Below, piece by piece: positions 16,389 to 64,000 of a DNA stretch of 64,000 nucleotides. The notes under the pieces are model-generated. The model worked only from the letters and a program-made list of their open reading frames with translations. It did no database searches and was not told where the DNA came from. The translations under genes were made by a program, and so were the position numbers. Each line of letters begins with the position of its first letter. Position 1 is the stretch's first letter. Source of the DNA: an uncultured Lentimicrobiaceae bacterium (GTDB taxonomy: Bacteria > Bacteroidota > Bacteroidia > Bacteroidales > SKPS01); NCBI GenBank assembly GCA_964469215.1, contig CAYXYB010000004.1, positions 103,744-167,743 of the forward strand, read 5' to 3'.

Positions 16389-17099
16389 TTAGTGTTTACT
16401 GTCGTGAAGCTTCGAATTTGCAGTGTATACATGCATAAAATATTCATCCTTGCCTTCACTGAATTCCAGCCCCATCTCTGCAGCTTTGAGTTCAGAGATC
16501 TGCTCTATCTTGTCCCACCGTTTAAGAGCACCTGTCTCTTCAAAAATCGCATGCAATTCATCAAGTGATTTCTTTGAAATTTTCCTGAGCGTTCCTGACC
16601 CTTCGCCATTATAATTACCTCCGAGCCTTTCAATGACCTCTTTTACATTTTCACGGAACCAATCCCAAATTGGTCCCTGTTCAGGGTGCATTGTGGTTTC
16701 AACCTCGTCAATATGAACGCAATATCCATACTTCAGTATCCATTCACCAACGGTTCTTTTTATAGCCAGCTGCTGCCTCCCTTTTTCAGATTCTGCAAAA
16801 TATCCCAGATCCTGTGACAGATTTCTCAAAGCGATCACTATCAGCCCCGGTGTATTACTTCGCGGACATCTGGTTCTGCACGACATACACTCTCCGCAAA
16901 ACCAGATAGTTTCACTTTTAAGTAATGCTATTATTTTTGAGTCATCCCTGGTCTGAACCGTATCGGCTATTATCCTGGGATCATAATTATAGAAAGAGGC
17001 TGCCGGACAGATAGCTGTACAGGTTCCGCAATTGATACAGGCATTAAGTCCCTCCTCAAACCTCACATCCTTACATAAACGATCGTATAATTTCCCCAT
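16389..17099 (-). CDS. HdrC-like 2x[4Fe-4S] protein
   Basis: CINCGTCTAICP and CGECMSCRTRCP motifs. First gene of the hdrC-B-A-like operon. Confidence 0.65.
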   Translation of the reverse strand: MGKLYDRLCKDVRFEEGLNACINCGTCTAICPAASFYNYDPRIIADTVQTRDDSKIIALLKSETIWFCGECMSCRTRCPRSNTPGLIVIALRNLSQDLGYFAESEKGRQQLAIKRTVGEWILKYGYCVHIDEVETTMHPEQGPIWDWFRENVKEVIERLGGNYNGEGSGTLRKISKKSLDELHAIFEETGALKRWDKIEQISELKAAEMGLEFSEGKDEYFMHVYTANSKLHDSKH

Positions 17100-17135
17100 G
17101 GTTTTGTACTGCTGTTAGTATATAGGAAAAGTAGA

Positions 17136-17143
17136 CAAATGTA
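17136..17143 (-). promoter_or_regulatory. Candidate Bacteroidota -7 box (TACATTTG) for the hdr-like operon
   Basis: Matches TAnnTTTG on the minus strand, about 37 nt upstream of the hdrC-like start codon. Confidence 0.35.
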
Positions 17144-17212
17144 TGAATATTTTCATTAAGACATGGTATCTATACATTTTTTTACATATTCCGGTTTCTT
17201 CTTGTTTAGCAA

Positions 17213-17372
17213 GCGTTTGGCTCACATCGTTGGCGTTCAGGGTTCTTTGCTCTCGCTAAACTCGGACGTTCTGAGTTCTTTGTCTTCGTTACGCTCAGGC
17301 GTTCCGGGTTCGGATCGCTTCACTTGTGTTATGGTTCATTGCTCACTTCGGTCGTGCGTTCCGGCTGTTGCC
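17213..17372. repeat. Degenerate direct repeats of about 33 bp with a CGTTCnGrGTTC core, in a divergent promoter region
   Basis: Core copies at 17234-17245, 17267-17278 and 17300-17311 (exact 33-bp spacing) and at 17357-17368, plus a decayed copy near 17327-17337. Confidence 0.6.
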
Positions 17373-17467
17373 TTTAAGCCTGACAAATAGACAAAAAACA
17401 AAAGCTAACAGACAATAGTCTTTTTAGTAGAGATTTAAAAGAGTTGCCCACTCTATCTCAAATACAC

Positions 17468-17475
17468 TACCTTTG
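17468..17475 (+). promoter_or_regulatory. Candidate -7 box (TACCTTTG) for the two-component operon
   Basis: Matches TAnnTTTG about 57 nt upstream of the response-regulator ATG. Confidence 0.35.
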
Positions 17476-17531
17476 AACTGCAAAGTTATGTCCCACAAAA
17501 CCGTTCAGTTCGAAATCAAAACCTTACAATC

Positions 17532-18209
17532 ATGAAGATCCTCCTGGTGGAAGATGACCCAAAAGTTGCCTCTTTTATCAAGCGCGGCCTTACTGAAAAC
17601 AATATGAAAGTTGACCTTGCCACAGATGGCCAACAAGGGGAAGTCATGGCAAACGACAATTCATACGATCTGATAATTCTTGATATTTTGTTACCGAAAA
17701 TTACTGGGTTGGATATTTGCCGCAAAATCAGATCTCTCGACAGCAAAACCCCAATCCTGATGCTTACTGCACTTGGAACTATCAACGACAAGGTTACAGG
17801 CCTGAATGCCGGAGCAGATGACTATCTTGTTAAGCCTTTTGAATTCAGAGAATTGCTGGCAAGAATAAATGCTTTAACAAGACGAACCTATGATCTCAAT
17901 TCCAACACTTTACTTCAGATTGCAGACATGGAGGTGAATATTGAAGCAAAGACTGTTAAACGAATGGGTAAAGAGATACGTCTTACCGCTAAAGAGTTTA
18001 ATCTGCTGGTTTTTCTTCTCAGACACAAGGGAAGGGTAATTTCCCGAAGTGAAATCGAAGAGAAGATCTGGGGCACAACCTTTGAAAGAGAAAGTAATGT
18101 TGTAGATGTTTATATCAACTTTCTCAGAAAGAAAATTGACAGGGATTTTGAATCAAAACTTATTCACACAATTATTGGAATGGGATATGTACTAAAACTC
18201 AAAGGGTAA
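17532..18209 (+). CDS. OmpR/PhoB-family response regulator
   Basis: Receiver domain (MKILLVEDD, DLIILDILLP, T/K residues) plus a winged-helix trans_reg_C domain (LTAKEFNLLVFLLRHKGRVISR...GMGYVL). Confidence 0.9.
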   Translation: MKILLVEDDPKVASFIKRGLTENNMKVDLATDGQQGEVMANDNSYDLIILDILLPKITGLDICRKIRSLDSKTPILMLTALGTINDKVTGLNAGADDYLVKPFEFRELLARINALTRRTYDLNSNTLLQIADMEVNIEAKTVKRMGKEIRLTAKEFNLLVFLLRHKGRVISRSEIEEKIWGTTFERESNVVDVYINFLRKKIDRDFESKLIHTIIGMGYVLKLKG

Positions 18210-19579
18210 TGAGTATAAGATTAAGATTGATGCTGTTATTTACAACGATAACAGCAGTAATCCTTGGGGCATTTTCCATTAACATTTATTATTCTACTGT
18301 CTATATCCGAAAGAATGCCTTCCTCGACAGGCTTTGGGAAAGATCTGATATTGTTGTACAGTTGCTGAGAGATAACCCGAATCCTGATCTAAGCTGTATT
18401 CATCCATCTGCCCGCAATACATACTGGACTATCCTGCCGGAAGAGGAGATCGTTGTTTTCGACAATAATGGTCATTCTATGTTTATAAATGAATTTACCG
18501 CCCTCAATATCAATTATTATAGAATAATTGAATTGCTTAAAAAAACGGAAACGTCTGAATACATGCTTGGGCAGAGAAAATTCGTCGGGGTAAGAGAAAG
18601 AATCAATGGCAAAACATATTACGTGATAGTATCAGCATGGGACAAAAATGGGCACCGGTTGCTAAATAACCTTAGAATCACAATTGTATCCTCTTTTATT
18701 GCCTCTATTATGGTCATTATTCTGGCTGGATGGCTTTTTGCAAGAAAGATATTCCAACCAATAGAAAAAATCATTGAGACAGCAGGAAGAATAAGTGAAA
18801 CTGATCTTCACCTGAGGGTTTCTATACCACGAGGCAAGAATGAACTGGTAAGACTTGTAAATACCATCAATGAATCTTTTGACAGACTACAGAAATCATT
18901 TGAGGTTCAGAAAACTTTTGTTGCAAATGCGTCTCATGAACTTCGCACACCATTAACAGCTTTGCAAGGGGATCTTGAACTGGCTCTCTACAAAGAACGT
19001 TCAGCCGAAGAATACAGGCAATATCTTTCTGCTGCTTATGAAGACTCCAGGCAATTATCACGGCTGGTAAACAACCTTCTTCTGTTTGCGCAAACAAGTA
19101 ACAACCCGAATAAACTAGACTTCCAACCTGTAAGGGTAGATGAGCTGCTTCTTGATGTTATTCAGAAAACCCTTATCTCTTACCCGGGACGAAATATTGA
19201 TTTCAGGTTCAAAGATAAAACATCTGATGAGAGAAGATATGCTGTATATGGAATTGAAAATCTGCTAAGTATTGCTTTTGCAAATATTCTTGAAAATGCC
19301 TTGAAGTTTTCAAAAGGCACGCCAGTTCTGATAGAAATATCAACAGAAAACAACCTTGCAATAAATATAATCGACCACGGGATAGGTATTTCACTGGCTG
19401 ATGTGGAGAGCATTTTTGTCCCTTTCTACAGATCAAAAAGATCCTCAGATGTAACTGGATTCGGTCTTGGACTGCCACTTGCCAGGCAAATCATTGAACT
19501 CCACAATGGAACAATCTCAGTAGAAAGCAAAATAAGCGAAGGAACAAAAGTAATGATCATTTTTCCCTCAAGCCTTTAA
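18209..19579 (+). CDS. Sensor histidine kinase (2 TM, HAMP, HisKA, HATPase_c)
   Basis: H-box FVANASHELRTPLT and N/G boxes (NILENALKFS, DHGIGI, GFGLGL). The start overlaps the regulator stop (TAATG). Confidence 0.9.
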   Translation: MSIRLRLMLLFTTITAVILGAFSINIYYSTVYIRKNAFLDRLWERSDIVVQLLRDNPNPDLSCIHPSARNTYWTILPEEEIVVFDNNGHSMFINEFTALNINYYRIIELLKKTETSEYMLGQRKFVGVRERINGKTYYVIVSAWDKNGHRLLNNLRITIVSSFIASIMVIILAGWLFARKIFQPIEKIIETAGRISETDLHLRVSIPRGKNELVRLVNTINESFDRLQKSFEVQKTFVANASHELRTPLTALQGDLELALYKERSAEEYRQYLSAAYEDSRQLSRLVNNLLLFAQTSNNPNKLDFQPVRVDELLLDVIQKTLISYPGRNIDFRFKDKTSDERRYAVYGIENLLSIAFANILENALKFSKGTPVLIEISTENNLAINIIDHGIGISLADVESIFVPFYRSKRSSDVTGFGLGLPLARQIIELHNGTISVESKISEGTKVMIIFPSSL

Positions 19580-41414: not shown

Positions 41415-41819
41415 ATGTACCTATCCAATACAGGAGTTGTGGCTGATATTCTATGGCAAGATATCATAAACCATTCAAAAAACATAGATCTCGGATCTTA
41501 TGTAATCATGCCGAATCACGTTCACGGCATACTGATTTTGAAAAACAATGAAGAATTCGTAAACGTAGATCCTTCAGACAATCGTACTCCGGGTGAACGG
41601 CGTTTCCAGAATCAGGGGTGCAACACTGTATCTTCCATAATTGGATCGTATAAATCTGCCGTCACAAAACATGCAAACCGTTTGGGTTATGAGTTTAAAT
41701 GGCAATCACGGTTTTACGACACCATAATCCGTAGTCAAAAAGCATACGAAAACATTACGAATTACATCATCGACAATCCCCAAAAATGGGAAATTGACCG
41801 ATTTAACCGTATCAGGTAG
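41415..41819 (+). CDS. REP-associated tyrosine transposase (RAYT, IS200/IS605 TnpA-like); start uncertain
   Basis: HUH motif VIMPNHVHGIL and the catalytic Tyr region (GSYKSAVTK..W).. Homology (RRRHRYRVTIRLQSWDYARDGAYFITICT) continues in frame upstream to about 41283, where no ATG, GTG or TTG is available. Confidence 0.7.
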   Translation: MYLSNTGVVADILWQDIINHSKNIDLGSYVIMPNHVHGILILKNNEEFVNVDPSDNRTPGERRFQNQGCNTVSSIIGSYKSAVTKHANRLGYEFKWQSRFYDTIIRSQKAYENITNYIIDNPQKWEIDRFNRIR

Positions 41820-41946
41820 GGACAAGTCGTAACACCAGGCAGGGACAAGGCGTAACACCAGGCAGGGACAAGGCGTAACACCAGGCAGGGACAAGGCGTA
41901 ACACCAGGCAGGGACAAGGCATGCCTTGTCCCTACCTGGTGTTACG
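41813..41946. repeat. REP-like array: about 4.7 tandem 23-bp units ending in a 25-bp-arm inverted repeat
   Basis: Units CAGG(T/C)AGGGACAAG(T/G)CGTAACAC at 41813, 41836, 41859, 41882 and 41905. Hairpin at 41897-41946 pairs 24 of 25 bp around GGCATGCC. Confidence 0.85.
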
Positions 41947-44871
41947 CAACCGGTATCCCATCTTCGCCATACGGTTAACTTCCACCGACGGAAAGCCAAA
42001 ATCATCGACAACCTTTCCCCTTATAAGGTATATACCATCTCCGCGAAATGGGTATTGTTTCAACGATTGCGGAAAATGGACGGTGTCAAAAAATTCTCCG
42101 TGCGCATCAATGAATGCTGCAAAATGCATGATCTCCCTCTTCGATGTCCAGACATATTTAATAGTAACGAGTTTGCCAAGCATCCGCACCTCTTTCCCAA
42201 CCCGGCTGCTAAGATCTTTTGCGGCAATATCTCCCCGGTAGCGAGTCTCAAGCATATCGAACCAGGATAGTGACACGGGGAAACCCAGCAGTTCAAGCTC
42301 ATCATACGCATCTTCCAGAATGTCGCGGTTAAGCTCAGGCAGTGAGAATGGCTGCAGAGTATTTGCAAACAGTTTTCCTGTTGCATGGTTTTCGGTTTTT
42401 TTACCTGTAAGCATCCGGCTCTCCCAGAGAAGTACCGGTTTCTTTTTCCCTGTGAAGTTCAATGCTCCCGCACGTATCAGTAAAGTGATCTGTTCCGGTG
42501 CGGGATTGGCTCGTTGTATAAAATCCTCAAGCGAATGAAACTCCCCTCCCTCATCGCGCACTGCAAGCACTCTTTTTACAAACTTCTCCTCTAGTCCGGC
42601 TACATGGATGAATCCGATACGGATGGTTTTACTTTTTATACCGGTAAGATATTCCCCCTTGTTAACACATGGCAATGCAATGGTGGCACCCCATCGCCTT
42701 GCCTCGTTGAAATACACCCAGGTGCGGTAAAACCCGCCAAAATTATTTATCACTGCAACCATAAACTCCAGTGGGTAATGCACCTTAAGCCACAGGCTCT
42801 GGAAACTCTCTACGGCATAGGATGCGGAATGGGCTTTCGAGAAGGAGTAACCTGCAAACGACTCAATCTGACGCCACACCTCCTGTGTAATGGCTTCCGG
42901 ATATCCCGACTGCCTGCAGTTATCGAAGAACTTCTGAACGATAAGCCGGAACTCCTTCTTCCCTCTCCCCTTTCCGCTCATGGCTCGCCGTAACACGTCG
43001 GCATCAGCAAGGTCAAGCCCTGCAAAATGGTGGCATATCTTCAGCACATCCTCCTGATAGACCATCACCCCATAAGTTTCACGAAGCTGCTCTTCCATTA
43101 CAGGGTGGATATAGCTGAAGTCACCGGGATTGTGGAACCTTTTTATATACTCCTTCATCATTCCCGATTTGGCAACACCGGGCCTGATGATGGAGCTTGC
43201 CGCCACCAGTGTAAGGTAATCACCACAACGGAGTTTCTTCAGCAACCCACGCATCGCAGGGCTCTCTATATAAAAACAGCCGTTACATTCCCCATCCCTG
43301 AGTTGACGATGTACCTCCGGATCACGCTTGAAACGATCAACATCGTGCACATCTAATGCAATCCCCCTGTTCTGCTTAACAAGCAACGCAGCATCCCGGA
43401 TATGACCTATACCCCTCTGACTCAGGATGTCGAACTTTTCGAAACCGAGCTCCTCGGCTACGTACATATCCCACTGGGTTGTCTGAAAACCCTTTGGCGG
43501 CATATCCAGGGCGGTGTAATATGTTATCGGCTCCTCCGACACAATTATCCCCCCGGCATGTATGCTGCGGATATTCGGAAAATCGGCTATCTTTTCAGCA
43601 ATATCTACGATGCGCCTTGCAATTGAATTATCTTTAGCAGCTTCTTCCGGACGCTCAACCAGATTGTCGATCTCTCTCACCGGCAAGCCGTAAACCTTGC
43701 CAAGCTCACGGTAAATGGACCTGTTCCTGAACGTTGATGTCGCACCCAGCAATGCGGTATGACCCGATCCGTAACGCTTGAAAATATAGTCCTGAACTTC
43801 ATCGCGCTCTTTCCATGAATAGTCAATGTCGAAATCGGGTGGCGTGGAACGGCGCGGATTAAGGAACCTTTCAAAGTAGAGATCGAGCTCAATGGGATCA
43901 ACATTGGTTATCATAAGGCAGTAAGCCACAATACTGTTGGCACCACTCCCCCGCCCCACATGGTAAAACCCGCGCGACATAGAGTACCGGACTATATCCC
44001 ATGTTATGAGAAAATATGATGCAAATCCAAGCCTGTCGATGATGTCCAACTCATTTACAATGCGTTGCCGGGCGGTTTTATTCTTTGTACCATACCGGTA
44101 CTTCATCCCATCATAAGCAAGTTTCTCCAGAAGTAACCTGTCATCGTATATGTTCCCCGTAAAAGTCTTCCTGTTTTTTATTGATGTAAAATCCATGTCG
44201 ATGCTGCACTGCGACAACAACCTGAGGGTGTTTTCTATCAACAGTGGTACATCTTCGCACACTGACATCAGTGCATCGGATGACAACAGATGATCACCGG
44301 GAGATGCAGTATCATCAGGTTTTAGTTTTGAAATCAAAGTATTAAGGTCAACTGCTCTGAGGTTTCTGTGGATATCATAATCATCCGGAGCAGCAAACGA
44401 TGCAGTGGCACGCAGAATCAACCTGTCACTTCCTTTACCACGCAACGAGAAACGGTTTTTACTGATCTCCTCCGGTTTTATACCAATGAATTCATTCTCT
44501 TCAAGGTGCACAGATGCAGATCCTTTAAACGGATACACAATAAATACATCAGAAAACCCGGGAGGCTTGTCAGGAAGAGGTATTCCCCTGACGTTATGGT
44601 CACTTAGAAACATATTCAGCTCGCGCATTCCATGACGATTGCGTGCTATCCCCTGGTAAAGCATCTCCCCCTTTCGCCGGAAATCAATACCGCAAACCGG
44701 AGCAACACTCTCATCCATGCAGGCTTTAACAAAGTCGGGGAACGCGCTGCAGTTGTTTATGTCTGAGAGAACAATAACCTCATGCCCATGGCACCGTGCA
44801 TTGGTTACCAACTGCTCCGGCGACATGATGCCGTATCTCAGGCTGTAATAAGTATGGCATTGCGTCAGCAT
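41932..44871 (-). CDS. DNA polymerase III alpha-subunit family protein, short DnaE2-like form
   Basis: 979 aa. N-terminal PHP-like CHTYYSLRYG, polymerase core (FDILSQRGI, YQEDV), and a C-terminal OB region. It is shorter than a replicative DnaE. Confidence 0.7.
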   Translation of the reverse strand: MLTQCHTYYSLRYGIMSPEQLVTNARCHGHEVIVLSDINNCSAFPDFVKACMDESVAPVCGIDFRRKGEMLYQGIARNRHGMRELNMFLSDHNVRGIPLPDKPPGFSDVFIVYPFKGSASVHLEENEFIGIKPEEISKNRFSLRGKGSDRLILRATASFAAPDDYDIHRNLRAVDLNTLISKLKPDDTASPGDHLLSSDALMSVCEDVPLLIENTLRLLSQCSIDMDFTSIKNRKTFTGNIYDDRLLLEKLAYDGMKYRYGTKNKTARQRIVNELDIIDRLGFASYFLITWDIVRYSMSRGFYHVGRGSGANSIVAYCLMITNVDPIELDLYFERFLNPRRSTPPDFDIDYSWKERDEVQDYIFKRYGSGHTALLGATSTFRNRSIYRELGKVYGLPVREIDNLVERPEEAAKDNSIARRIVDIAEKIADFPNIRSIHAGGIIVSEEPITYYTALDMPPKGFQTTQWDMYVAEELGFEKFDILSQRGIGHIRDAALLVKQNRGIALDVHDVDRFKRDPEVHRQLRDGECNGCFYIESPAMRGLLKKLRCGDYLTLVAASSIIRPGVAKSGMMKEYIKRFHNPGDFSYIHPVMEEQLRETYGVMVYQEDVLKICHHFAGLDLADADVLRRAMSGKGRGKKEFRLIVQKFFDNCRQSGYPEAITQEVWRQIESFAGYSFSKAHSASYAVESFQSLWLKVHYPLEFMVAVINNFGGFYRTWVYFNEARRWGATIALPCVNKGEYLTGIKSKTIRIGFIHVAGLEEKFVKRVLAVRDEGGEFHSLEDFIQRANPAPEQITLLIRAGALNFTGKKKPVLLWESRMLTGKKTENHATGKLFANTLQPFSLPELNRDILEDAYDELELLGFPVSLSWFDMLETRYRGDIAAKDLSSRVGKEVRMLGKLVTIKYVWTSKREIMHFAAFIDAHGEFFDTVHFPQSLKQYPFRGDGIYLIRGKVVDDFGFPSVEVNRMAKMGYRLRNTR

Positions 44872-56019: not shown

Positions 56020-56090
56020 CGAGTCTGCATCTCGAGGACAGGCGAAAATGACTTGTCCTGAAATAGGTTTACACTAAAACAGTGTAAAAA

Positions 56091-56540
56091 ATGGAAAAAA
56101 AGACAAGAAAAATCATTCAGAAAAAGGGGAAATATTTTACCGAAACAGAACGGCATTCTCTCATTCAGGAGATGCTCAAAAACAATTGGACCAAGCAATA
56201 CGCCTGGGAGCTCTATACCGGAGAACCAGAAGAACGTGGACAACTACTAAGGTGGGTGCGAAAGTTGGGCTATGTAGGAAAAATTCAAAATAAAAAATTT
56301 GTATCAAAGCGTAGTATTCTTAAATTTGAAATAAAATCGGGTACTATGGCTGATAAATCAAATGAAGAACAAGAATCTTTTGAAATGCTTCAACTTAAGA
56401 AGCGGATTGCAGAGTTGGAAAAAAAATTGAAAGATGAAGAAATGAAAGTCATTGCATGGCAAACAATGGTTGACATTGCCGAGAAAGAGTTCAATATCCC
56501 GATAAAAAAAAAGTTCAACACCAAACCATCGGAGAAATGA
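56091..56540 (+). CDS. IS3-family transposase OrfA (HTH plus leucine zipper)
   Basis: 149 aa. C-terminal coiled coil LQLKKRIAELEKKLKDEEMKV. The stop overlaps the orfB ATG (ATGA). Confidence 0.7.
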   Translation: MEKKTRKIIQKKGKYFTETERHSLIQEMLKNNWTKQYAWELYTGEPEERGQLLRWVRKLGYVGKIQNKKFVSKRSILKFEIKSGTMADKSNEEQESFEMLQLKKRIAELEKKLKDEEMKVIAWQTMVDIAEKEFNIPIKKKFNTKPSEK

Positions 56541-57377
56541 AAGAAAATTTTCCTCACATAGGACTTGCCAGGCTGTGTGGATGGTTTGGTATCACCCGGC
56601 AGGCGTATTATCAGGAAAGCTGGAAGCAAATGGACAAAGGAGTTGAAACAGAAGTACTGCTCAAAGAAGTGCTGAGAATACGAAAAGACCATAAGAGGAT
56701 TGGAACGCGCAAGCTATACGAAATGCTTACACCATTTATGATGGAGCATCAGATAAAAATAGGCAGGGATAAATTGTTTGACCTTCTTTCAGCCCATCAT
56801 CTGCTCATTCGCAGGCGCAGAAGGAATATCCGTACGACCTTTTCCAATCACTGGCTCAGAAAAATATCCGGACCTGATTCGCGGTTTTACCCCAACGGCC
56901 CCCAATCAACTTTGGGTAAGCGATATAACTTATTGGAAAGTAAGCAAACACAAGGTCTATATTACTTTCATTACTGATGCATTCTCCCATAAAATTGTCG
57001 GGTACAATCTGGCTGAAACACTTGAAGCCTTAGAAAGCCTCAAAGCGCTCAAGATGGCTTTACAGCCCTTTGATGGGGCTGTTAGCCATCTTATCCACCA
57101 CTCAGATAGAGGATTGCAGTATTGTAGTCATGAATACGTTAAAATGCTTAATAAATATGATATTAGGATCAGTATGACCGAATCCGGAGATCCTTTGGAG
57201 AACCCGGTTGCTGAGCGAGTAAATGGTATCATAAAAGAAGAATATCTTGAACCGCAAGGGCTAAAATCAATTAAAGAAGCCATTACTTATTTGCATAAGG
57301 CTATTGCACTGTACAACACCGAAAAGCCTCACATGAGTATAAGCAACTATACGCCCGACAAGATACATCATTCCTAA
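56537..57377 (+). pseudogene. IS3-family transposase OrfB (DDE/rve integrase core), frameshifted
   Basis: Homology runs in frame A up to ...TTFSNHWLRK, then continues in frame B as YPDLIRGFTPTAPNQLWVSDITY...HSDRGLQY...NPVAERVNG. The switch occurs at a 5-A run (56860-56864), where 4 A would keep the frame. Confidence 0.7.
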
Positions 57378-57644
57378 GAGTCAATTCAGGTCAAACGAAT
57401 CTGGAAGAACTACTATCCAAAGAAAACGTCTCCTGTAAACTCATATCAGGATTAATATTAACTTTGTAAATGAATAACCGGATTATAAACAAAAACTGTA
57501 AACTTTTTTCAGGACGAGACAAAATTCTGCCGACCCACATTGCACACATTACCAAAGCCCCACGAGCCAACGCTGCAACCAAAGCTTTGTCAAAGAGTGC
57601 AATCTTGCTGACCCTCTTAAAAGAAACTTCTAAAAGATATTTAT

Positions 57645-60600
57645 ATGCCTAAGATTTTTGACAATATTTCGTTACACCTAAAAACTGGTTTATTAGAAAC
57701 AATTGAAAGTTCATACAGAGCTGACTTTTGTGTAGGATATTTCAATTTAAGAGGTTGGAAATTACTGATGAACCACATTGACCATTTTGAAGGTGAAGAT
57801 AATTGTTGTCGGTTACTCGTTGGAATGCAAAGTCCGGAAGAAAACCTATTAAGACAAGCATTAAGCGAAGCCAAAAAAGGGCTTATGGATAACCCGACTG
57901 CTTTAGCACTCAAAAAAGAAATTGCAAAATCGTTTACAAGACAATTGACATTTGGTATTCCGACTAATGAAGATGAAGAATGTTTGAGAAAGCTTAAAAT
58001 ACAGATTACTGAAAAAAAACTTAAAGTAAAATTATTCCTTGCATATCCTTTACACGCTAAATTGTACTTATGCCATAAAAAAGACAAAGATGCACCTTTG
58101 ATTGGATATGTAGGAAGTAGTAATTTAACAATGGCAGGACTTTCACAACAAGGAGAATTAAATGTAAATGTAGTAGAACAAGATGCTGCCGAAAAACTTG
58201 ATAAATGGTTTGAAGCCAGATGGGAAGACCGCTGGTGTGTTGATATTTCTGACGAACTTGTTCAGATTTTGGAAGAAAGTTGGGCTGGAGAAAGCACTAT
58301 TCCACCTTACTACATTTATTTAAAAATTGCTTATCATCTTTCTCAGGAAGCAAGAAATGGTATCGGAAATTACATAATTCCAAAAATTCTGCAAACAGAC
58401 CTATTGCCCTTTCAGATGAACGCAGTTAGTGTAGCAGCCAGACATTTGGATAAACGAGGCGGTGTACTAATTAGTGATGTTGTAGGTTTGGGTAAAACAA
58501 TGACTGCATCAGCAGTTGCAAAACTTTTTGAAGAAACATTTTTCACTGAAACATTGATCATTTGTCCTAAAAACCTCGTTGAAATGTGGGAAGGATATGT
58601 TCATACCTATCAATTGAGGGCAAAAGTTCATAGCATTTCAAAAGTTGACAAAAAGTTTCTTGAAGAAACAAGGCGATACAGAGTAGTAATAATTGATGAA
58701 AGCCACAATTTAAGAAACAGAGAAGGAAAACGTTACGCCATTGTAAAAGAGTATTTGGAAAGGAACGAAAGCAAAGTTATTCTATTGACTGCAACGCCAT
58801 ACAATAAGGGTTATACCGACATTTCTAATCAGTTACGTTTATTTATTCCTGAAGACAAGGATATTGGCATTGCACCTGAGAATTTCATTCGTGATGTCGG
58901 AGGACCAATTGAATTTATTGCAAACTATCAATACTCACCGAATACATTGCTTGCCTTTGAGAAAAGCAATTATTCTGATGATTGGCAAGAACTTCTTAAA
59001 TTATATATGGTTAGACGAACCAGAACTTTCATAAAAGAAAACTATTCAACCTATGATGAAAACAAGAAACAGTTTTATTTAACATTCAATGATGGGAGAA
59101 TTGAATATTTTCCTGACAGATTGCCAAAGAAGATTGAATACTCATTTGACCCGAAAGACAAGAAAGATATTTACGTAAAACTTTACGATGAAGATGTTGT
59201 AAAAATAATCAATGGTTTATACCTTTCTCGTTATGGCTTGGGTAACTACATTGACAAGGAAAAAGAAGTCTTCGCAAATGTAGATGAAAGAAAAATTATT
59301 GCCAATTTAAGCCGTGCAGGTAAAAGATTAATGGGTTTTTGCAGAACCAATCTTTTTAAACGATTAGAAAGCTCAGGTTTCTCTTTTCTTATTTCATTAG
59401 CTCGCCACGTTTTAAGAAACGAAGTTTTTGTTTATGCTATTAAAAATGGTTTGCCATTGCCAATTGGACAACAGGAAAAAGCAGAAATGGACGAGTTTTT
59501 GGAGGAAAACGATAATGGCGAAGGTGTTGTAATGAATCTGATTACCGATGAAGCCGAATACAAGAAGTTAGCAAAGAAATATTACGAAAAATGCGTTCTT
59601 GAAAAAAATAGATACGACTGGATTTCCAGCAATTTGTTTACTGAATCTGTAAAGAAATTATTGATAAAAGATGCAGAAAAAATTATTTCAATACTTGAAA
59701 TTGGTAAAAACTGGAATCCTGATGATGATAAACAATTAAATTCACTTGAAAAACTTTGTGAAAAAGACCATAAGAATGAAAAAATCTTAATCTTTACTCA
59801 ATTTGCAGATACAGCGTATTATCTGTTTGAACACTTGAAAAAAAGAGGGTTAAAAAATATTGCTTGTGCTACTGGCGACCTCGAGAACCCGACAGATTTA
59901 GCTCACAGATTTAGCCCCGTAAGCAATAAAATAAAAAATGTTAAAGATGAAATACGCATTTTGATAAGTACAGATGTTTTAAGTGAAGGACAGAACTTGC
60001 AGGATGCACATATCATTGTAAACTACGATTTGCCTTGGGCTATTATCCGTTTAATTCAAAGGGCTGGACGTGTTGACAGAATTGGACAAGCATCTGATAA
60101 AATATTTTGTTACTCATTTTTGCCACAAGATGGTTTGGAACGCATAATCCGTTTAAGAGGCAGATTGACACAACGTATTAGAGAAAATGCAGAAGCAGTT
60201 GGAACAGACGAAATTTTCTTTGATGGCGACCCTGTAAATATACGCGATTTATACAACGAAAAATCCGGCATACTTGACGATGACGAAGGCGATGTTGACT
60301 TGACTTCACAAGCATATGAAATCTGGAATCAGGCAATAAAAGTCAATCCCGAATTAAAAAAGAAAATTATTAAACTGCCTGATGTTGTTTATTCGACCAA
60401 AGAAAAACACGATGATGGTTTTGAAAACAATAGCGTAATAACTTATCATCGAAATAGTCACGGTTACGAAGTTTTATCTTGGCTAAATGAAAAAGGTGAA
60501 ACTATTTCAACAAGTCAATCCCGAATTTTGAAAATAGCTGAGTGTTCATTAGATACGCCTGCAATTGATAAATTAGAAAATCATCACGATTTAGTGAAGA

Positions 60601-60956
60601 AAGCTGTTTTACTTGCAGAGAACGAAGCAGCAAAATCAGGAGGACAACTTGGAAGCAAATCAAGTGCAAGATATAGGGCTTATGGTATGCTTACCCGCTA
60701 TTATGAGGGTGTAAAAAATACCTTGTTTGATGTGGATGCCTTAAAGAAAACAATTGATGATATTTACCATTATCCGCTTCGAGAAACAGCAAGAGAAATT
60801 ATAAACCGAAGAATAAAGCTGAATTGTTCTGATGATGAAATGGCTTCATTATGTATGCAATTGCGTGACGAAGGGCGACTTTGCATTGTGGAACAAAAAG
60901 ATCAGGATGGTTTCAGAACACCGCATATTCTTTGTTCAATGGGGATTAAAAAATAG
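57645..60956 (+). CDS. HKD (PLD-family) nuclease domain fused to an SNF2-family SF2 helicase/translocase
   Basis: Single HKD motif HAKLYLCHKKD...GYVGSSNLTMAGL (nt about 58053-58133). SNF2 motifs DVVGLGKT, VIIDESHNLRN, LLTATPYNKG, STDVLSEGQNLQDA and QRAGRVDRIGQ. 1103 aa. Confidence 0.85.
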   Translation: MPKIFDNISLHLKTGLLETIESSYRADFCVGYFNLRGWKLLMNHIDHFEGEDNCCRLLVGMQSPEENLLRQALSEAKKGLMDNPTALALKKEIAKSFTRQLTFGIPTNEDEECLRKLKIQITEKKLKVKLFLAYPLHAKLYLCHKKDKDAPLIGYVGSSNLTMAGLSQQGELNVNVVEQDAAEKLDKWFEARWEDRWCVDISDELVQILEESWAGESTIPPYYIYLKIAYHLSQEARNGIGNYIIPKILQTDLLPFQMNAVSVAARHLDKRGGVLISDVVGLGKTMTASAVAKLFEETFFTETLIICPKNLVEMWEGYVHTYQLRAKVHSISKVDKKFLEETRRYRVVIIDESHNLRNREGKRYAIVKEYLERNESKVILLTATPYNKGYTDISNQLRLFIPEDKDIGIAPENFIRDVGGPIEFIANYQYSPNTLLAFEKSNYSDDWQELLKLYMVRRTRTFIKENYSTYDENKKQFYLTFNDGRIEYFPDRLPKKIEYSFDPKDKKDIYVKLYDEDVVKIINGLYLSRYGLGNYIDKEKEVFANVDERKIIANLSRAGKRLMGFCRTNLFKRLESSGFSFLISLARHVLRNEVFVYAIKNGLPLPIGQQEKAEMDEFLEENDNGEGVVMNLITDEAEYKKLAKKYYEKCVLEKNRYDWISSNLFTESVKKLLIKDAEKIISILEIGKNWNPDDDKQLNSLEKLCEKDHKNEKILIFTQFADTAYYLFEHLKKRGLKNIACATGDLENPTDLAHRFSPVSNKIKNVKDEIRILISTDVLSEGQNLQDAHIIVNYDLPWAIIRLIQRAGRVDRIGQASDKIFCYSFLPQDGLERIIRLRGRLTQRIRENAEAVGTDEIFFDGDPVNIRDLYNEKSGILDDDEGDVDLTSQAYEIWNQAIKVNPELKKKIIKLPDVVYSTKEKHDDGFENNSVITYHRNSHGYEVLSWLNEKGETISTSQSRILKIAECSLDTPAIDKLENHHDLVKKAVLLAENEAAKSGGQLGSKSSARYRAYGMLTRYYEGVKNTLFDVDALKKTIDDIYHYPLRETAREIINRRIKLNCSDDEMASLCMQLRDEGRLCIVEQKDQDGFRTPHILCSMGIKK

Positions 60957-60962
60957 GAAACT

Positions 60963-63900
60963 ATGAGTACTATAAGTAAAGAACAGTTTAAGCAGTTTAT
61001 TGAGAATTTCGATTTCATAGGTTTATTTAACCAATTAGGTTGGACATATCTTGATGAACAAACTCCTGTCAGACTAAAGGAGGAAACATATTTATTTTAT
61101 TCCGTTGCTGAAAAGGGCGGTTTCAGAATTTTAGTGTTCAAACCTGTAAAACATCAAGATTTGCCCGATTATGCAACCCGTTTGCAACTTGACAGAAAAA
61201 TTGGTAAACTGTTCCGTGAACATCTTATAATTTTTTGCGATAAAAATGATACAACTCAAATATGGCAATTATTTATTAAGCAGTTAGGCAAACCCTCTCG
61301 ATTGAGTGAAACCCGCTGGCATAAAGGACAAGAACCCGAATTACTTTATCAAAAAACCTCAAATCTGTTTTTCACACTCGACCAGGAAGAAAACATTACA
61401 ATTGCTGATGTTGTTGATGTGGTAAATGAAAACTTTAGTAAGAATGTTGATCAGGTTACCAAAAAGTTTTATGAGAGTTTCCGAAAAGAACATAAAAAAT
61501 TCATTGAACTTATAAAAGGAATTTCGGTCGTAACCGACCGTGAATGGTATGCTTCATTGATGCTCAACCGCTTAATGTTTTGCTACTTCATTCAAAAAAA
61601 AGGCTTTCTTGATAAAAATTTGAATTACCTGAAAGAGAAACTCACCTATTGCCAGACGAAAAAAGGCAAAGACAAATTCTATGTGAGTTTCTATAAAAAT
61701 TTTCTTCTTGCTTTGTTTCATCAGGGTTTAGGTTCGCCCGACCAATCAGAAGAATTGAAAAAAGAAATTGGAAAAATACCCTATTTGAATGGTGGTTTAT
61801 TTGATGTTCACGAACTTGAAAGACTGTATGAGAATATTGATATAAGCGATAAGGCATTCGAAACAATTTTCAATTTCTTTGACCAATATAATTGGCATCT
61901 TGATACAAATATTTCTGCTTCAGGTAAAGACATTAACCCCGATGTAATAGGATTTATTTTTGAAAAATATATTAACGACCGTGCCCAAATGGGTGCGTAT
62001 TATACCAAAGAAGATATTACCGATTACATAAGTAAAAACTGCATTATTCCTTTCTTGTTTGATGAAACGGAACGCAAATATGCAAAAGTATTAAAGCCAG
62101 AAGCTGAAATAATGCAAATACTAAAAGAATCGGGCGATACTTACATTTACGATGCTGTAAAAAAAGGTGTTGATATTCCATTGCCTAAAGAAATTGAAAT
62201 TGGTATTGATACAATTCAACCAAACCTTATTGAAAGACGAAAAGACTGGAATAAGCCAGCTTCGGAAGAATATTCTTTGCCTACAGAAATATGGCGTGAA
62301 GTAGTTGACCGCAGAAAACGCTACACAGAAATTAAAGAGAAAATTGAAAAGGGAGAAATTACTCAAATAAATGATTTTATTACTTACAATTTAAATATTC
62401 GACAGTTTACACAGGATATTATTGATAGCCACAGCGACCCCGATTTTGTCCGACATTTTTACGAAGCATTAAGTAATATTACAATCATTGACCCAACCTG
62501 TGGCTCAGGAGCTTTCCTTTTCGCAGCAATGAATATACTTGAACCACTTTATGAAAGCTGCATACAACGTATGCGAAATTTTATTGAAGATGAAATTGGT
62601 AGGCAATTAGATTTTCCTAGTGATTTAGGGAAAGAAAAACTTAAGGTAAAAACAAAATACGAAATCTTTTCAAAAGAACTTAATAAAGTGTTTGCCCCCG
62701 AACATCCCAACCTGAAATATTTTATTTTCAAAAACATCATTCTTCGCAATTTATATGGCGTAGATATAATGAAAGAAGCTGTTGAAATAGCCAAACTTCG
62801 TTTATTTCTAAAACTTGTTGCAACGGTTGAAGCCGATTATAAGAAGCCAAATCTTGGTCTTGAACCTTTGCCTGATATTGATTTTAATATTCGTTCAGGA
62901 AATACTCTGATTGGCTACGCCACAAAGAAAGAGATTGACGACTTGCAGGGAATGTTTGTTACCCCTAAAATGAAAGAAAAGATTCTGGAAGAATGCGACC
63001 TTGTTTCAAGAGCGTTTCAACGGTTCAAAGAAATACAGTTAAAAGGTTACGAAAACAAAAAAGAGTTTACAAAAGCTAAAACTGAATTGAATAATCGGTT
63101 AGATAAACTTGCTGGAAATCTAAACAAAATTCTGTACAAGCAGCATTACGAAAGTATGGATTATGAGAAATGGTTGGTAACCCATCAACCTTTTCATTGG
63201 TTTGCCGAGTTTTATGAGATTATTAATGGCAATGGTGGTTTTGACGTAGTAATTGGGAATCCACCATACGTGGAATATTCAAAAGTTGTTGACACATATA
63301 AAATAATTAATTACAGAACAGAAAGGTCTGGTAATTTATATGCTTTTGTAATGGAGCGTGTTACAAATATAATTGGTGAAAATGGCACGTTCTCATTTAT
63401 AATTCTAATGGCATCCATAACCACAAAGAGAATGTCTCATTTACGGAGAATACTTCAAGATAATTTTAAAAACAACTACTTCTTAAATCTTGCAGGTGAC
63501 TGGCATCCTGGTAGATTGTTTGATGGTGTTCGAAGTCAGTTCTCTATTTTTGTTGGTAATAATCAATCAAACACTCCTTGTACTTATACAAGTAATTATA
63601 TTCGTTGGGCAAATACGGAAAGAGAGTTTTTGACTATTTCAAAACTCAATTACATTAATAATAAATTCATTAATACTGATGACGTATACCCAAAATTTGG
63701 AATTCCAATTGAAATAAGTATTTGGAATAAGATATTAAAAAATAAAAACTCTTTACCCCTATATTTTAGAAGTTCTGGAAAAAAACTTTTTTATAGAAAT
63801 GCAGGAATTGCATATTATCAGATAGCTATCAATTTTCAACAAAAATTTACAATAAATGGACAGCCATCGGTATCTTCTACTCTTAAATCAATACTAACTG

Positions 63901-64000
63901 AATCTGTTCAGCATAGTAATAGTTTGGCAGCAATATTAAATAGCAATATTTTCTCTTGGTACTATTTCTGTTTTTCTGATTGTTATCATTTAACTTCTGG
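60963..64000 (+). CDS. Large Eco57I/PglX-like gamma-class N6-adenine DNA methyltransferase; 3' end lies outside the window
   Basis: The frame is open from the ATG at 60963 to the window edge, which is why it is absent from the ORF track. Hand translation gives LMLNRLMFCYFIQKKGFL, GAYYTKEDI, motif I DPTCGSGAFL (nt 62490, in frame) and motif IV GNPPY (nt 63255, in frame). The start is 6 nt after the helicase stop. Confidence 0.8.
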   Translation, partial: MSTISKEQFKQFIENFDFIGLFNQLGWTYLDEQTPVRLKEETYLFYSVAEKGGFRILVFKPVKHQDLPDYATRLQLDRKIGKLFREHLIIFCDKNDTTQIWQLFIKQLGKPSRLSETRWHKGQEPELLYQKTSNLFFTLDQEENITIADVVDVVNENFSKNVDQVTKKFYESFRKEHKKFIELIKGISVVTDREWYASLMLNRLMFCYFIQKKGFLDKNLNYLKEKLTYCQTKKGKDKFYVSFYKNFLLALFHQGLGSPDQSEELKKEIGKIPYLNGGLFDVHELERLYENIDISDKAFETIFNFFDQYNWHLDTNISASGKDINPDVIGFIFEKYINDRAQMGAYYTKEDITDYISKNCIIPFLFDETERKYAKVLKPEAEIMQILKESGDTYIYDAVKKGVDIPLPKEIEIGIDTIQPNLIERRKDWNKPASEEYSLPTEIWREVVDRRKRYTEIKEKIEKGEITQINDFITYNLNIRQFTQDIIDSHSDPDFVRHFYEALSNITIIDPTCGSGAFLFAAMNILEPLYESCIQRMRNFIEDEIGRQLDFPSDLGKEKLKVKTKYEIFSKELNKVFAPEHPNLKYFIFKNIILRNLYGVDIMKEAVEIAKLRLFLKLVATVEADYKKPNLGLEPLPDIDFNIRSGNTLIGYATKKEIDDLQGMFVTPKMKEKILEECDLVSRAFQRFKEIQLKGYENKKEFTKAKTELNNRLDKLAGNLNKILYKQHYESMDYEKWLVTHQPFHWFAEFYEIINGNGGFDVVIGNPPYVEYSKVVDTYKIINYRTERSGNLYAFVMERVTNIIGENGTFSFIILMASITTKRMSHLRRILQDNFKNNYFLNLAGDWHPGRLFDGVRSQFSIFVGNNQSNTPCTYTSNYIRWANTEREFLTISKLNYINNKFINTDDVYPKFGIPIEISIWNKILKNKNSLPLYFRSSGKKLFYRNAGIAYYQIAINFQQKFTINGQPSVSSTLKSILTESVQHSNSLAAILNSNIFSWYYFCFSDCYHLTS

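Follow-up and report, generated by a model that had tools for sequence, protein, structure and literature searches.

Do a nuclease-helicase fusion and an adenine methyltransferase encoded back to back constitute a single defence system and, if so, to which of the known types does it belong? This question is raised by the right end of a 64,000-nt stretch of DNA from an uncultured Lentimicrobiaceae bacterium (contig CAYXYB010000004.1, positions 103,744 to 167,743; hereafter the window), where a gene joining an HKD-type phospholipase D (PLD) nuclease to a Swi2/Snf2 translocase (gene 1) is followed by a gene for an Eco57I/MmeI/PglX-like DNA methyltransferase (gene 2). An earlier annotation of this DNA, referred to below as the original prediction, had proposed a candidate atypical defence system, a proposal that is supported by the strong synteny of both genes and by the fact that the missing parts of BREX, DISARM and Type I/III systems do not appear downstream. 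Based on the evidence presented below, it is rather probable that the locus is a mobile, ATP-dependent restriction-modification (RM)-like defence cassette of two core proteins. The observations that carry this reading are the domains and intact catalytic motifs of both proteins, the tight coupling of their genes, a synteny that extends across phyla, a hypervariable target recognition domain (TRD) in the methylase and the signs of horizontal transfer.

A nuclease-translocase fusion and its partner methylase

Gene 1 (57645..60956, forward strand) encodes a protein of 1103 amino acids (aa) which, based on the list of open reading frames (ORFs), Pfam matches and an AlphaFold model, is the predicted restriction (Res-like) subunit. 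A single-HKD, NgoFVII-like PLD nuclease domain occupies aa 42-193 (57768..58223, forward strand; PLDc_2, 2.5e-10; RE_NgoFVII, 2.6e-08), with the catalytic H137/K139 at 58053-58061 and GSSNLT at 58113-58130, and is followed by a Swi2/Snf2 ATPase core at aa 253-814 (58401..60086, forward strand) that is recognised by the Pfam models SNF2-rel_dom, ResIII and Helicase_C. This core contains the Walker A motif DVVGLGKT (58476-58499), DESH (58695-58706) and a Helicase_C lobe (aa 698-814), and an insert of ~220 aa (aa 471-690) lies between the two ATPase lobes. A motif survey counted one HKD in the whole protein (H137-A-K139 ... G157-SSNLT), the remaining HxK triplets being devoid of the GSxN context, and the fusion of a single-HKD PLD to a complete SNF2 motor announced in the original prediction was thereby confirmed. 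In an alignment of 39 homologues with 59-88% identity, H137, K139, GSS (G157, S158, S159), the Walker A residues GLGKT (281-285), DESH (351-354) and QRAGRxDRIGQ (805-815) were invariant in all 39 proteins.

The C-terminal region of gene 1 (aa 851-1103; 60195..60953, forward strand) has no Pfam match and, according to the AlphaFold secondary structure, consists of a mixed alpha+beta part followed by a helical one. Conservation reaches 90% or more in 75 of its 253 columns and, by analogy with RapA/BrxHII-type helicases, this region is a candidate module for partner docking or DNA handling. Profile matches in the PDB comprised the Snf2 core of SSO1653 and RapA, and RapA was also the top structural match in the PDB for the AlphaFold model (predicted local distance difference test, pLDDT, 71.6), with about 1000 aligned columns. 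Sequence searches of the PDB returned no close solved relative of gene 1, gene 2 or the DprA-like protein encoded further downstream. A RapA-like helicase in which an HKD endoDNase replaces the N-terminal Tudor domain is already known among BrxHII/BREX-related helicases (PMC12839542). The gene 1 family is large, as more than 8000 clusters at 90% identity passed the word filter, and it occurs in many phyla with a uniform architecture of ~1100 aa. The best PADLOC match of gene 1 was the C3a139 'HKD+Snf2' family, but at 158 bits only, and C3a139 is an accessory family of Type III CRISPR systems (Shah et al., 2018, PMC6546367); gene 1 belongs to a different family.

An ATG at 60963, situated 6 nt past the stop codon of gene 1 on the same strand, opens gene 2, which runs for 1012 codons up to 64000, where it is cut by the end of the window (60963..64000, forward strand). 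An exact look-up of ORF1 retrieved a public contig of 8344 bp (L001), identical to the window across an overlap of 6422 bp and extending 1922 bp beyond it, in which the stop codon of gene 2 is found 301 nt past the window end and the full protein amounts to 1112 aa. Pfam detected Eco57I (4.6e-25) and MmeI_Mtase (5.2e-09) in this protein, and the PADLOC model REase_MTase_IIG PDLC03628 matched it with an E value of 1.7e-263 (875 bits; profile positions 8-999 of 1100). Its domain order is an N-terminal domain, a helical spacer, a methyltransferase core, the TRD and a conserved C-terminal region. Since motif I (aa 510) precedes motif IV (aa 766) and the TRD is C-terminal, gene 2 belongs to the gamma class of N6-adenine DNA methyltransferases and, with a TRD of its own, is predicted to be a Mod-like subunit for both modification and specificity. 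All the motifs that had been reported in the open-ended second ORF were found, namely NRLMFCYFIQKKGFL (aa 202-216), AYYT (345-348), DPTCGSGAFL (510-519) and GNPPY (765-769); within the family they show no or almost no variation, and two independent alignments agree on the invariance of DPTCGSGAFL and GNPPY.

Conservation, expressed as the mean majority fraction, differs among the regions of gene 2, with 0.48 in aa 1-165, 0.65 in aa 166-495, 0.59 in aa 496-800 and 0.40 in aa 801-1040. The helical spacer (aa 166-495; 61458..62447, forward strand) contains the invariant stretches LNRLMFxYFIQKKGFL and MGAYYTKEDIT and a weak match to MmeI_hel (aa 201-280); 105 of its 330 columns are conserved at 90% or more, and in this region the sister methylases described below match DUF7814. 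The methyltransferase core (aa 496-800; 62448..63362, forward strand) carries motif I DPTCGSGAFL at 62490-62519 and motif IV GNPPY at 63255-63269. The hypervariable TRD (aa 801 to ~1040; 63363..64000 on the forward strand and running past the window) is the least conserved part of the protein, with only 12 of 240 columns conserved at 90% or more.

The N-terminal domain of gene 2 (aa 1-165; 60963..61457, forward strand) is predicted to follow the order alpha-alpha-beta3-alpha-beta3, and its first 147 residues, which are confidently modelled by AlphaFold2 (pLDDT 75-88), display a restriction-endonuclease-like topology. A survey of charged residues in 22 diverse homologues revealed no conserved D...(D/E)xK in this domain, and only W27, A49 and W101 are invariant. 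The description of this domain as non-catalytic in the original prediction agrees with the lack of the triad and is put in doubt by the predicted topology, so that it is plausible, not proven. The domain has probably no catalytic role and may serve as a docking surface for gene 1. For the model of gene 2 as a whole (pLDDT 65.6; predicted template modelling score, pTM, 0.37) the best fold matches were BrxX/PglX, DrdV, LlaGI (1.1e-05), LlaBIII (4e-05), CamA and M.TaqI.

Conservation of the gene pair across genomes

The association of both genes was analysed in a sample of one genome per species, in which 80 related loci with 44-57% identity were kept of at least 600 stretches listed, and all ORFs in +/-10 kb of each locus were clustered all against all. 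Counts given here over 81 loci refer to the HKD-Snf2 loci in this neighbourhood clustering. In 74 of them a methylase homologue is located directly downstream on the same strand, the intergenic distance being usually -30 to +35 nt, often with an overlap, while in the other seven the contig ends or the methylase lies just upstream. This arrangement spans Bacteroidota, Chloroflexota, Proteobacteria, Cyanobacteria, Verrucomicrobiota, Deinococcota and other phyla, and its recurrence is far beyond what would be expected by chance. The synteny in other genomes on which the original prediction depended was thus found in many phyla, as well as on haloarchaeal plasmids. When the homologues of the fusion protein were clustered with their neighbours, three conserved gene clusters emerged, HKD-Snf2 (81 loci), methylase (74 loci) and a DprA-like protein (25 loci), the next cluster comprising 6 loci; the core often consists of these three genes. 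The methylase family is comparable in size to the HKD-Snf2 family.

Helicase and methylase also diverge together, to a degree that depends on the region of the methylase. Over the 48 loci in which both proteins are full-length, the Spearman correlation with helicase identity was 0.65 for aa 1-380 of the methylase, 0.39 for the core (aa 496-800) and 0.13 for the TRD (aa 801-1040), values that are descriptive only because the pairs are non-independent. Covariation of the N-terminal part together with a freely varying TRD is the pattern expected if the former is the interface with the partner and the latter is exchanged for specificity.

The pair is likewise kept by more distant relatives. A Rhodococcus plasmid of 17.7 kb carries the pair alone (38% identity) beside genes for replication and partition, and haloarchaeal plasmids carry it in reversed order (25-27% identity), with an Eco57I/DUF7814-type methylase and without DUF499. 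Members of the family were not found in phage genomes. On Haloferax volcanii pHV4 (L091; NC_013966.1, 73368-78957) the methylase is followed by a PLD-Snf2 ORF of only 777 aa with no Helicase_C match, an IS4 transposase gene is situated directly downstream of the latter, and an McrB-like AAA_5+EVE protein is encoded nearby; as far as the sequence allows a judgement, the restriction half of this pair may have been knocked out naturally. In a sister methylase subfamily (L031 13478-17575, L002, L026, L061 and others), only the N-terminal ~380 aa are shared with gene 2 by BLAST; these methylases keep the Eco57I/MmeI/DUF7814 architecture, and that of L031 bears a C-terminal Schlafen AlbA_2 fusion.

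A relative for which experimental work exists is encoded on plasmid pSYSX of Synechocystis sp. PCC 6803, where a 'helicase-related protein' with 49% identity is followed by a small ORF, a VapC-family toxin gene and then an 1100-aa 'DNA methyltransferase' that aligns with gene 2 over its full length at 44% identity. Because its size (1100 aa) and plasmid location match, this methyltransferase was equated with slr6050; the helicase gene (SGL_RS01585) would then be slr6047 in the old numbering, and no mention of slr6047 was found in the searchable literature. An active restriction system classically does not tolerate the removal of its modification half. slr6050 encodes M.Ssp6803IV, an 1100-aa pSYSX protein to which the asymmetric GA(m6A)GGC was given tentatively, by elimination and with the aid of REBASE (Hagemann et al., PMC6105098). 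Its knock-out failed to segregate and the gene was deemed essential by the authors, who noted a weak HSDR_N similarity in Slr6050 and did not mention the neighbouring helicase (Hagemann et al., PMC6105098). The fact that slr6050 could not be deleted lends indirect support to the RM model.

The adjacency of both genes in 74 of 81 loci, and a pairing that is kept down to 25% identity in archaea, are difficult to reconcile with the view that gene 2 is a self-sufficient Type IIG/IIL enzyme and the HKD-Snf2 protein an independent defence that travels with it, in the manner of Hna or a solitary HmaA. Such a view could invoke the match to PDLC03628 (E 1.7e-263), the domain order co-linear with MmeI and DrdV, an N-terminal domain that is endonuclease-like by prediction and the weak HSDR_N similarity of Slr6050 (Hagemann et al., PMC6105098), as well as the report that HmaA, a solitary Snf2-nuclease, protects on its own against T4 (PMC11232893). 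It would leave without explanation that no D...(D/E)xK is conserved in an N-terminal domain with only W27, A49 and W101 invariant, that the helicase co-varies with the N-terminal region of the methylase and that, on H. volcanii pHV4, the PLD-helicase is reduced to 777 aa without a Helicase_C match next to an IS4 transposase gene. Altogether, two independent activities that merely travel together are an improbable explanation of the locus.

Proposed mode of action and relation to known systems

For the RM-like cassette, we infer a mode of action that involves physical interaction of the two proteins, translocation, cleavage by dimers or upon collision and an accessory role of the DprA-like protein. 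Gene 2 would recognise a short, probably asymmetric site and mark the host DNA by N6-adenine methylation of one strand. At unmodified sites it would recruit or license the HKD-Snf2 protein, probably through the N-terminal ~380 residues of the methylase, and the HKD-Snf2 protein would move on double-stranded DNA at the expense of ATP, like Swi2/Snf2 motors, and cut with its PLD nuclease. In PLD nucleases such as Nuc and BfiI, two HKD halves come together in one active site; since each gene 1 protein has a single HKD half-site, two copies would be needed for an active nuclease centre, and cutting would take place when two motor-nucleases meet or dimerise, either as a standing dimer or as converging motors. 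This requirement for two copies would solve the hemimethylation problem as in Type III and Type ISP enzymes. The DprA-like protein, a frequent accessory, would most likely bind single-stranded DNA (ssDNA) and/or restrain the genotoxic helicase-nuclease, by analogy with RqlI/PsyrA and ShosA. The detail of collision or dimerisation is held with considerably less confidence than the RM-like reading of the locus as a whole. Fusions of HKD with superfamily 2 (SF2) helicases have been interpreted as the restriction part of systems resembling Type I/III (PMC10853773, PMC12839542).

A number of points weigh against the RM-like reading. Restriction, ATPase activity and cleavage are predicted activities of the HKD-Snf2 family. 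Swi2/Snf2 motors may act by remodelling protein-DNA complexes and not by covering long distances, and for BREX, to which the closest solved fold of gene 2 (PglX) belongs, no cleavage step has been clearly established in the blocking of phage. Confidence in the methylase models is moderate (pLDDT 65.6, pTM 0.37), and a non-canonical nuclease activity of the N-terminal domain is conceivable in view of its predicted topology. The co-divergence of both proteins was calculated over pairs that are not independent of each other, the assignment of GA(m6A)GGC is tentative and the essentiality of slr6050 was not linked to the helicase by the authors. In addition, ~30% of the close loci lack the DprA-like gene, as do nearly all members of the sister subfamily.

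Regarding its affinities, the cassette has its nearest functional relatives in the Type ISP and Type III enzymes, its parts overlap with those of DISARM and Type-2 BR/Hma, and the fold of the methylase is nearest to PglX and Type IIG/IIL enzymes. Type ISP enzymes (LlaGI, LlaBIII) share with the locus a nuclease, an SF2 ATP motor, a gamma-class N6-adenine methylase and a TRD, and the methylase-TRD fold of gene 2 matches theirs; for both, an asymmetric site with methylation of one strand is expected (GAAGGC for the Synechocystis relative) and an encounter of two enzymes is likely. Type ISP enzymes, however, are single polypeptides with an Mrr-type PD-(D/E)xK nuclease, whereas here the functions are distributed over two ORFs with a gap of 6 nt, the nuclease is of the HKD type, the motor is RapA-like instead of helicase-like and gene 2 has an extra N-terminal domain, endonuclease-like and apparently inactive; membership in this type was rejected. 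Type III enzymes (EcoP15I Mod + Res) are alike in combining a methylating and recognising subunit with an SF2 ATPase-nuclease subunit for ATP-dependent cutting, which in the present locus is a prediction. In contrast, Mod belongs to the beta class of methylases and has its TRD inserted, while gene 2 is a gamma-class protein of ~1100 aa; Res has a Rad25-like motor with a C-terminal PD-(D/E)xK, and gene 1 a Swi2/Snf2 motor with an N-terminal HKD. No Type III family model matched the locus proteins above noise, ResIII being a generic match to the helicase domain, and the locus was not placed in this type either.

Type IIG/IIL enzymes (MmeI, Eco57I, DrdV), like PglX/BrxX of BREX, have the domain order of gene 2, which unites methylase and TRD in one large Eco57I/MmeI-type chain and gives a fold match to DrdV. 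Type IIG enzymes cut by means of their own N-terminal PD-(D/E)xK and without an ATP motor, whereas the triad is unconserved in gene 2, which probably lacks the competent nuclease of this type, and a gene for a motor-nuclease adjoins the methylase.

The original prediction had stated that the locus resembles class 1 DISARM, BREX type 3 and the Hma candidates and matches none of them, and the missing genes and the scores below the cut-offs lead to the same conclusion. Class 1 DISARM overlaps in its parts, as DrmD is a Snf2 helicase, DrmC a PLD nuclease and DrmMI a large adenine methylase resembling Eco57I; here, in contrast, the PLD is fused to the N-terminus of the Snf2 protein, the locus has no separate DrmC-like PLD gene and the DrmA/DrmB (DUF1998) pair is absent from L001 and from the conserved clusters. 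Gene 1 scored 138.1 bits with the NCBIfam model DISARM_DrmD (cut-off 610) and 93.8 bits with DrmD_b (cut-off 950), and the PADLOC matches to DrmD and DrmMI were partial and restricted to sub-regions, with 125 and 71 bits at best. PglX/BrxX of BREX is the closest fold to gene 2, but its partners are missing here, as BrxC/PglY and PglZ are absent upstream, in L001 and from the 80 related loci, which excludes membership in BREX types 1 and 3; the model BREX_1_MTaseX gave 70.6 bits for gene 2 (cut-off 500), and the BREX-2/-5/-6 models 25-54 bits (cut-offs 400-900).

Type-2 BR/Hma systems (Rakesh & Krishnan 2026, PMC12839542) are similar in that an HKD-Swi2/Snf2 effector is combined with an N6-adenine methylase and with embedded defence genes, and gene 1 does have the N-terminal HKD on a RapA/BrxHII-like Swi2/Snf2 core that is a feature of their helicase; it matches PADLOC HmaA partially (aa 554-816, E 2.5e-22). 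BR/Hma systems are defined by a DUF499 AAA+ ATPase, to which a stand-alone DUF3780 is added in 98% of the Type-2 BR loci, and the BR/Hma methylase is of the DUF1156/PglXI type with the TRD inserted after core strand 2 (PMC12839542). None of this applies to the present family, since a cluster of the DUF499 AAA+ ATPase (HmaC) is absent in the 81 loci, there is no DUF3780 gene, the only extra conserved small gene being the DprA-like one (DNA_processg_A/PsyrA match), and gene 2 is an Eco57I/MmeI-type protein with a C-terminal TRD and no DUF1156 match. MANTIS, a BREX-related 'dual ATPase' system presented in a preprint that mentions DUF499, phospholipase D and hemimethylation (bioRxiv 2026.09.23.753747), is probably similar as well and may be relevant to the mechanism; DUF499 is missing from the present locus.

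These comparisons bear on the suggestion that the pair is an eroded remnant or a satellite of a BREX, DISARM or Hma/BR (MANTIS-type) system, non-functional or dependent on parts located elsewhere or lost. The partial similarity to hidden Markov models of DrmD, BrxHI/II, HmaA, DrmMI and PglX, the architecture shared with Type-2 BR helicases, in which HKD replaces Tudor (PMC12839542), and the truncation of the locus by the window end would fit such an origin. On the other hand, BrxC, PglZ, DrmA/B, a DUF499 ATPase and Type I/III subunits were found neither upstream in the window, where the absence of brxC and drmA had already been noted in the original prediction, nor in the L001 extension, and DUF499/BrxC, PglZ, DrmA/B and DUF3780 form no conserved cluster in +/-10 kb of the 80 related loci. 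Extension of the contig did not complete a Type I/III, BREX or DISARM system, as L001 adds only a YhcG gene and the DprA-like gene. The missing defining genes and the scores far under the cut-offs (138 vs 610 bits for DrmD, 70.6 vs 500 for PglX) argue against an assignment of the locus to BREX, DISARM or Hma/BR. The two ORFs are intact and so are all the catalytic motifs, the methylases of BR/Hma are DUF1156/PglXI-type and not Eco57I-type, and complete small plasmids carry the pair alone. A remnant is thus very improbable.

The principle of the RM-like cassette is not new, because restriction modules combining HKD with SF2 helicases have already been recognised in PbeA and in the Type-2 BR helicase (PMC10853773, PMC12839542). 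In the literature searched, no paper describes a pair of HKD/PLD-SNF2 protein and Eco57I-type methylase as a system, and what appears to be undescribed there is a common cassette of two to three genes, its masking as Type IIG, a DprA-like third gene and a fixed slot for defence genes. A more far-reaching proposal, which is conceivable and for the moment doubtful, is that these loci represent a distinct, very widespread and unrecognised ATP-dependent RM class, in which a half-site PLD becomes active when Snf2 motors meet, the DprA-like protein, binding ssDNA, links restriction to the state of the incoming DNA or to the way by which it enters, and the operon serves as a docking site for other defence genes. 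In that case, the DprA-like protein could for example sense or spare DNA that is single-stranded in transformation or replication, or it could act as a brake on the nuclease. The label given to the methylase by PADLOC, that of a single-chain Type IIG enzyme, would have kept the system hidden.

Should the two proteins indeed act together in restriction, the model by which PADLOC recognises gene 2 as 'Type IIG' would describe half of a two-subunit ATP-dependent system, which would change the annotation and counting of such loci and the prediction of transformation barriers. A remodeller-type ATPase with a PLD half-site would then be a fourth way of coupling motor and nuclease in restriction, besides Type I, III and ISP, the need of the half-site for dimerisation would provide a built-in two-site safety rule, and the undeletable slr6050 of Synechocystis 6803 would find a simple explanation.

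Downstream genes, boundaries and mobility

Beyond gene 2, L001 contains first a YhcG/DUF1016 gene and then the DprA-like gene. The former (L001 6751-7767) encodes a PD-(D/E)xK nuclease of 338 aa (Pfam 3e-48 and 1e-41; PADLOC PDC-S02 3e-141). The absence of a conventional restriction endonuclease gene noted in the original prediction is thus correct for the window and is not for the DNA just beyond it, where YhcG is encoded; this protein occurs at the same position in the present locus and one other, and it is an interchangeable defence passenger outside the core.

The DprA-like protein (P0241) has 151 aa from its likely true start, a start that removes the overlap with YhcG, and an exact look-up gave no record. 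It shows a weak Pfam match to DNA_processg_A, and the alignment of the DprA-like proteins contains the DprA Rossmann signatures SGFHSxxE and RN, with S34, G62, E68, R128 and N129 invariant. The PADLOC model PsyrA matches these proteins at 2.7e-11 to 1.5e-18 in the Rossmann core only, the ShosA model weakly matches one member (9.4e-05) and no homologue of PsyrT or ShosT was found at the locus. The frequency of the gene was assessed only in loci where the match to the gene 2 subfamily is full-length and the sequence continues for at least 4 kb downstream (n = 31); it was present in 22 of them, always on the same strand as the methylase, either abutting the methylase stop (-22 to +8 nt) or 0.9-5.6 kb further. 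It is almost never found in loci of the sister methylase subfamily and is missing from the Synechocystis and Rhodococcus plasmids. These absences indicate that the DprA-like gene is not essential to the core mechanism.

In the PsyrTA/RqlHI and ShosTA systems a similar DprA-type Rossmann partner restrains a genotoxic enzyme and binds ssDNA: RqlI restrains the RecQ-like helicase RqlH (PMC4670107) and ShosA binds ssDNA (PMC11961720). By analogy, a brake or an ssDNA sensor is the best guess for the accessory role of the present protein, which differs from PsyrA and ShosA in being much shorter and in having no SAM, MoCo or HTH extensions, and whose partner would be the HKD-Snf2/methylase pair, instead of a RecQ-PRTase or PRTase toxin.

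The matches to PsyrA and ShosA, antitoxin-type partners of genotoxic enzymes, bring up the possibility that the locus is a toxin-antitoxin or abortive infection (Abi) module, in which a genotoxic HKD-Snf2 protein would be held in check by methylation and the DprA-like protein until phage anti-restriction proteins or ssDNA intermediates release it to attack the host or any DNA, with cell death or dormancy as the outcome in place of classical restriction. A route resembling Abi was reported for HmaA (PMC11232893), suicide action was proposed for HKD-SF2 modules (PMC10853773), and the impossibility of deleting slr6050 (PMC6105098) would also be explained in this manner. Nevertheless, the presumed brake is missing at many loci, including those on the Synechocystis and Rhodococcus plasmids, and a hypervariable TRD, the hallmark of sequence-based discrimination between self and non-self, would be needless for the brake of a pure toxin. 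As an explanation of the whole locus, a toxin or Abi module is therefore unlikely, with somewhat more in its favour than the other alternatives; as an extra layer on an RM-like cassette, toxin or Abi action is plausible.

The slot in front of the DprA-like gene behaves as a hotspot for defence passengers. Across genomes it contains GmrSD, Schlafen AlbA_2 + HATPase_c_4 (3 scanned loci), AAA_21 + DUF4276, MTaX1 + HNH, NYN, DUF3800, DUF1828/DUF6978, deaminase + HATPase_c_4, a second Eco57I-type methylase or YhcG, and in cyanobacterial plasmids a VapC-family toxin gene with a small upstream ORF is inserted between helicase and methylase. In L083, whose cassette is 88% identical, the slot is occupied by a 483-aa dCMP/cytidine deaminase + HATPase_c_4 protein (16764-18215), the last gene is DprA-sized (154 aa, a match in size only) and a tyrosine recombinase gene is located 3 kb upstream of the cassette. 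The DprA-like accessory together with the nested GmrSD, Schlafen-like, VapBC and YhcG genes offers a compact model of defence islands built on RM scaffolds.

The cassette was acquired horizontally, as evidenced by its low GC content, the insertion sequence and direct repeat that flank it, its carriage on plasmids and the integrase or recombinase genes that neighbour it in other genomes. The GC content across the locus is 0.30-0.36, compared with 0.40-0.45 upstream, in agreement with the AT-richness that the original prediction had taken as a sign of acquisition. The same features bear on the idea of an epigenetic, regulatory or repair module unrelated to defence, in which a RapA-like remodeller and an orphan-like adenine methylase would act on host chromatin or transcription. 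RapA is indeed the best structural match of gene 1 and slr6050 was described as essential (PMC6105098); however, a patchy distribution, the location on plasmids and islands, a low GC content, the proximity of IS or integrase genes, an intact and invariant nuclease active site, a hypervariable TRD and defence genes nested in the operon are not what such a module would lead one to expect, and it is the least probable of the explanations weighed here.

The upstream bound of the cassette is an IS3-family element (56049..57521, forward strand) that is not part of the system and whose presence directly upstream, as originally described, is borne out by rve/rve_3 matches in Pfam, by terminal inverted repeats of 25 nt (56049-56073 and 57497-57521, 84% complementary) and by an AAA target duplication on both flanks. 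The element is inserted just upstream of the start of a PPDK_N/response-regulator gene. It comprises orfA (56091-56540), an N-terminal part of orfB (56537-56977) and, in a different frame, an rve integrase ORF (56778-57377); orfB thus looks split into two overlapping ORFs, which suggests that this copy may be defective or use more than the usual single frameshift.

An imperfect direct repeat of ~71 nt encloses the whole four-gene cassette. Its left copy (57529..57599, no strand assigned) begins 8 nt past the right end of the IS3 element, and its right copy (L001 8225-8295, equivalent to window 65803-65873) directly follows the DprA-like gene. The repeat is C/A-rich and ~76% identical, contains CAAAGCTTTG and reached a local alignment score of 33, in comparison with 10.4 +/- 1.7 (maximum 16) in 300 shuffles. 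It could be an att-like integration scar or a duplicated target; no such repeat was found around two related cassettes, and Rfam gave no match on the extended contig, the flanking repeat included. Two independent assemblies end 120 bp past the DprA-like gene, and contigs with the exact methylase stop there too. Promoter and terminator scans remained at background level, Bacteroidota-type promoters being outside the coverage of the scan.

At a distance from the cassette, the window contains five tandem copies of a 23-nt unit, CAGGCAGGGACAAGGCGTAACAC, followed by an inverted one with which a 26-nt perfect-type palindrome arises (41813-41947). These repeats adjoin the 3' end of a 134-aa ORF (41415-41819) that has no Pfam match at E<=0.001 and carries 'MPNHVHGILIL', a stretch reminiscent of Y1 (IS200/REP-associated) transposases.

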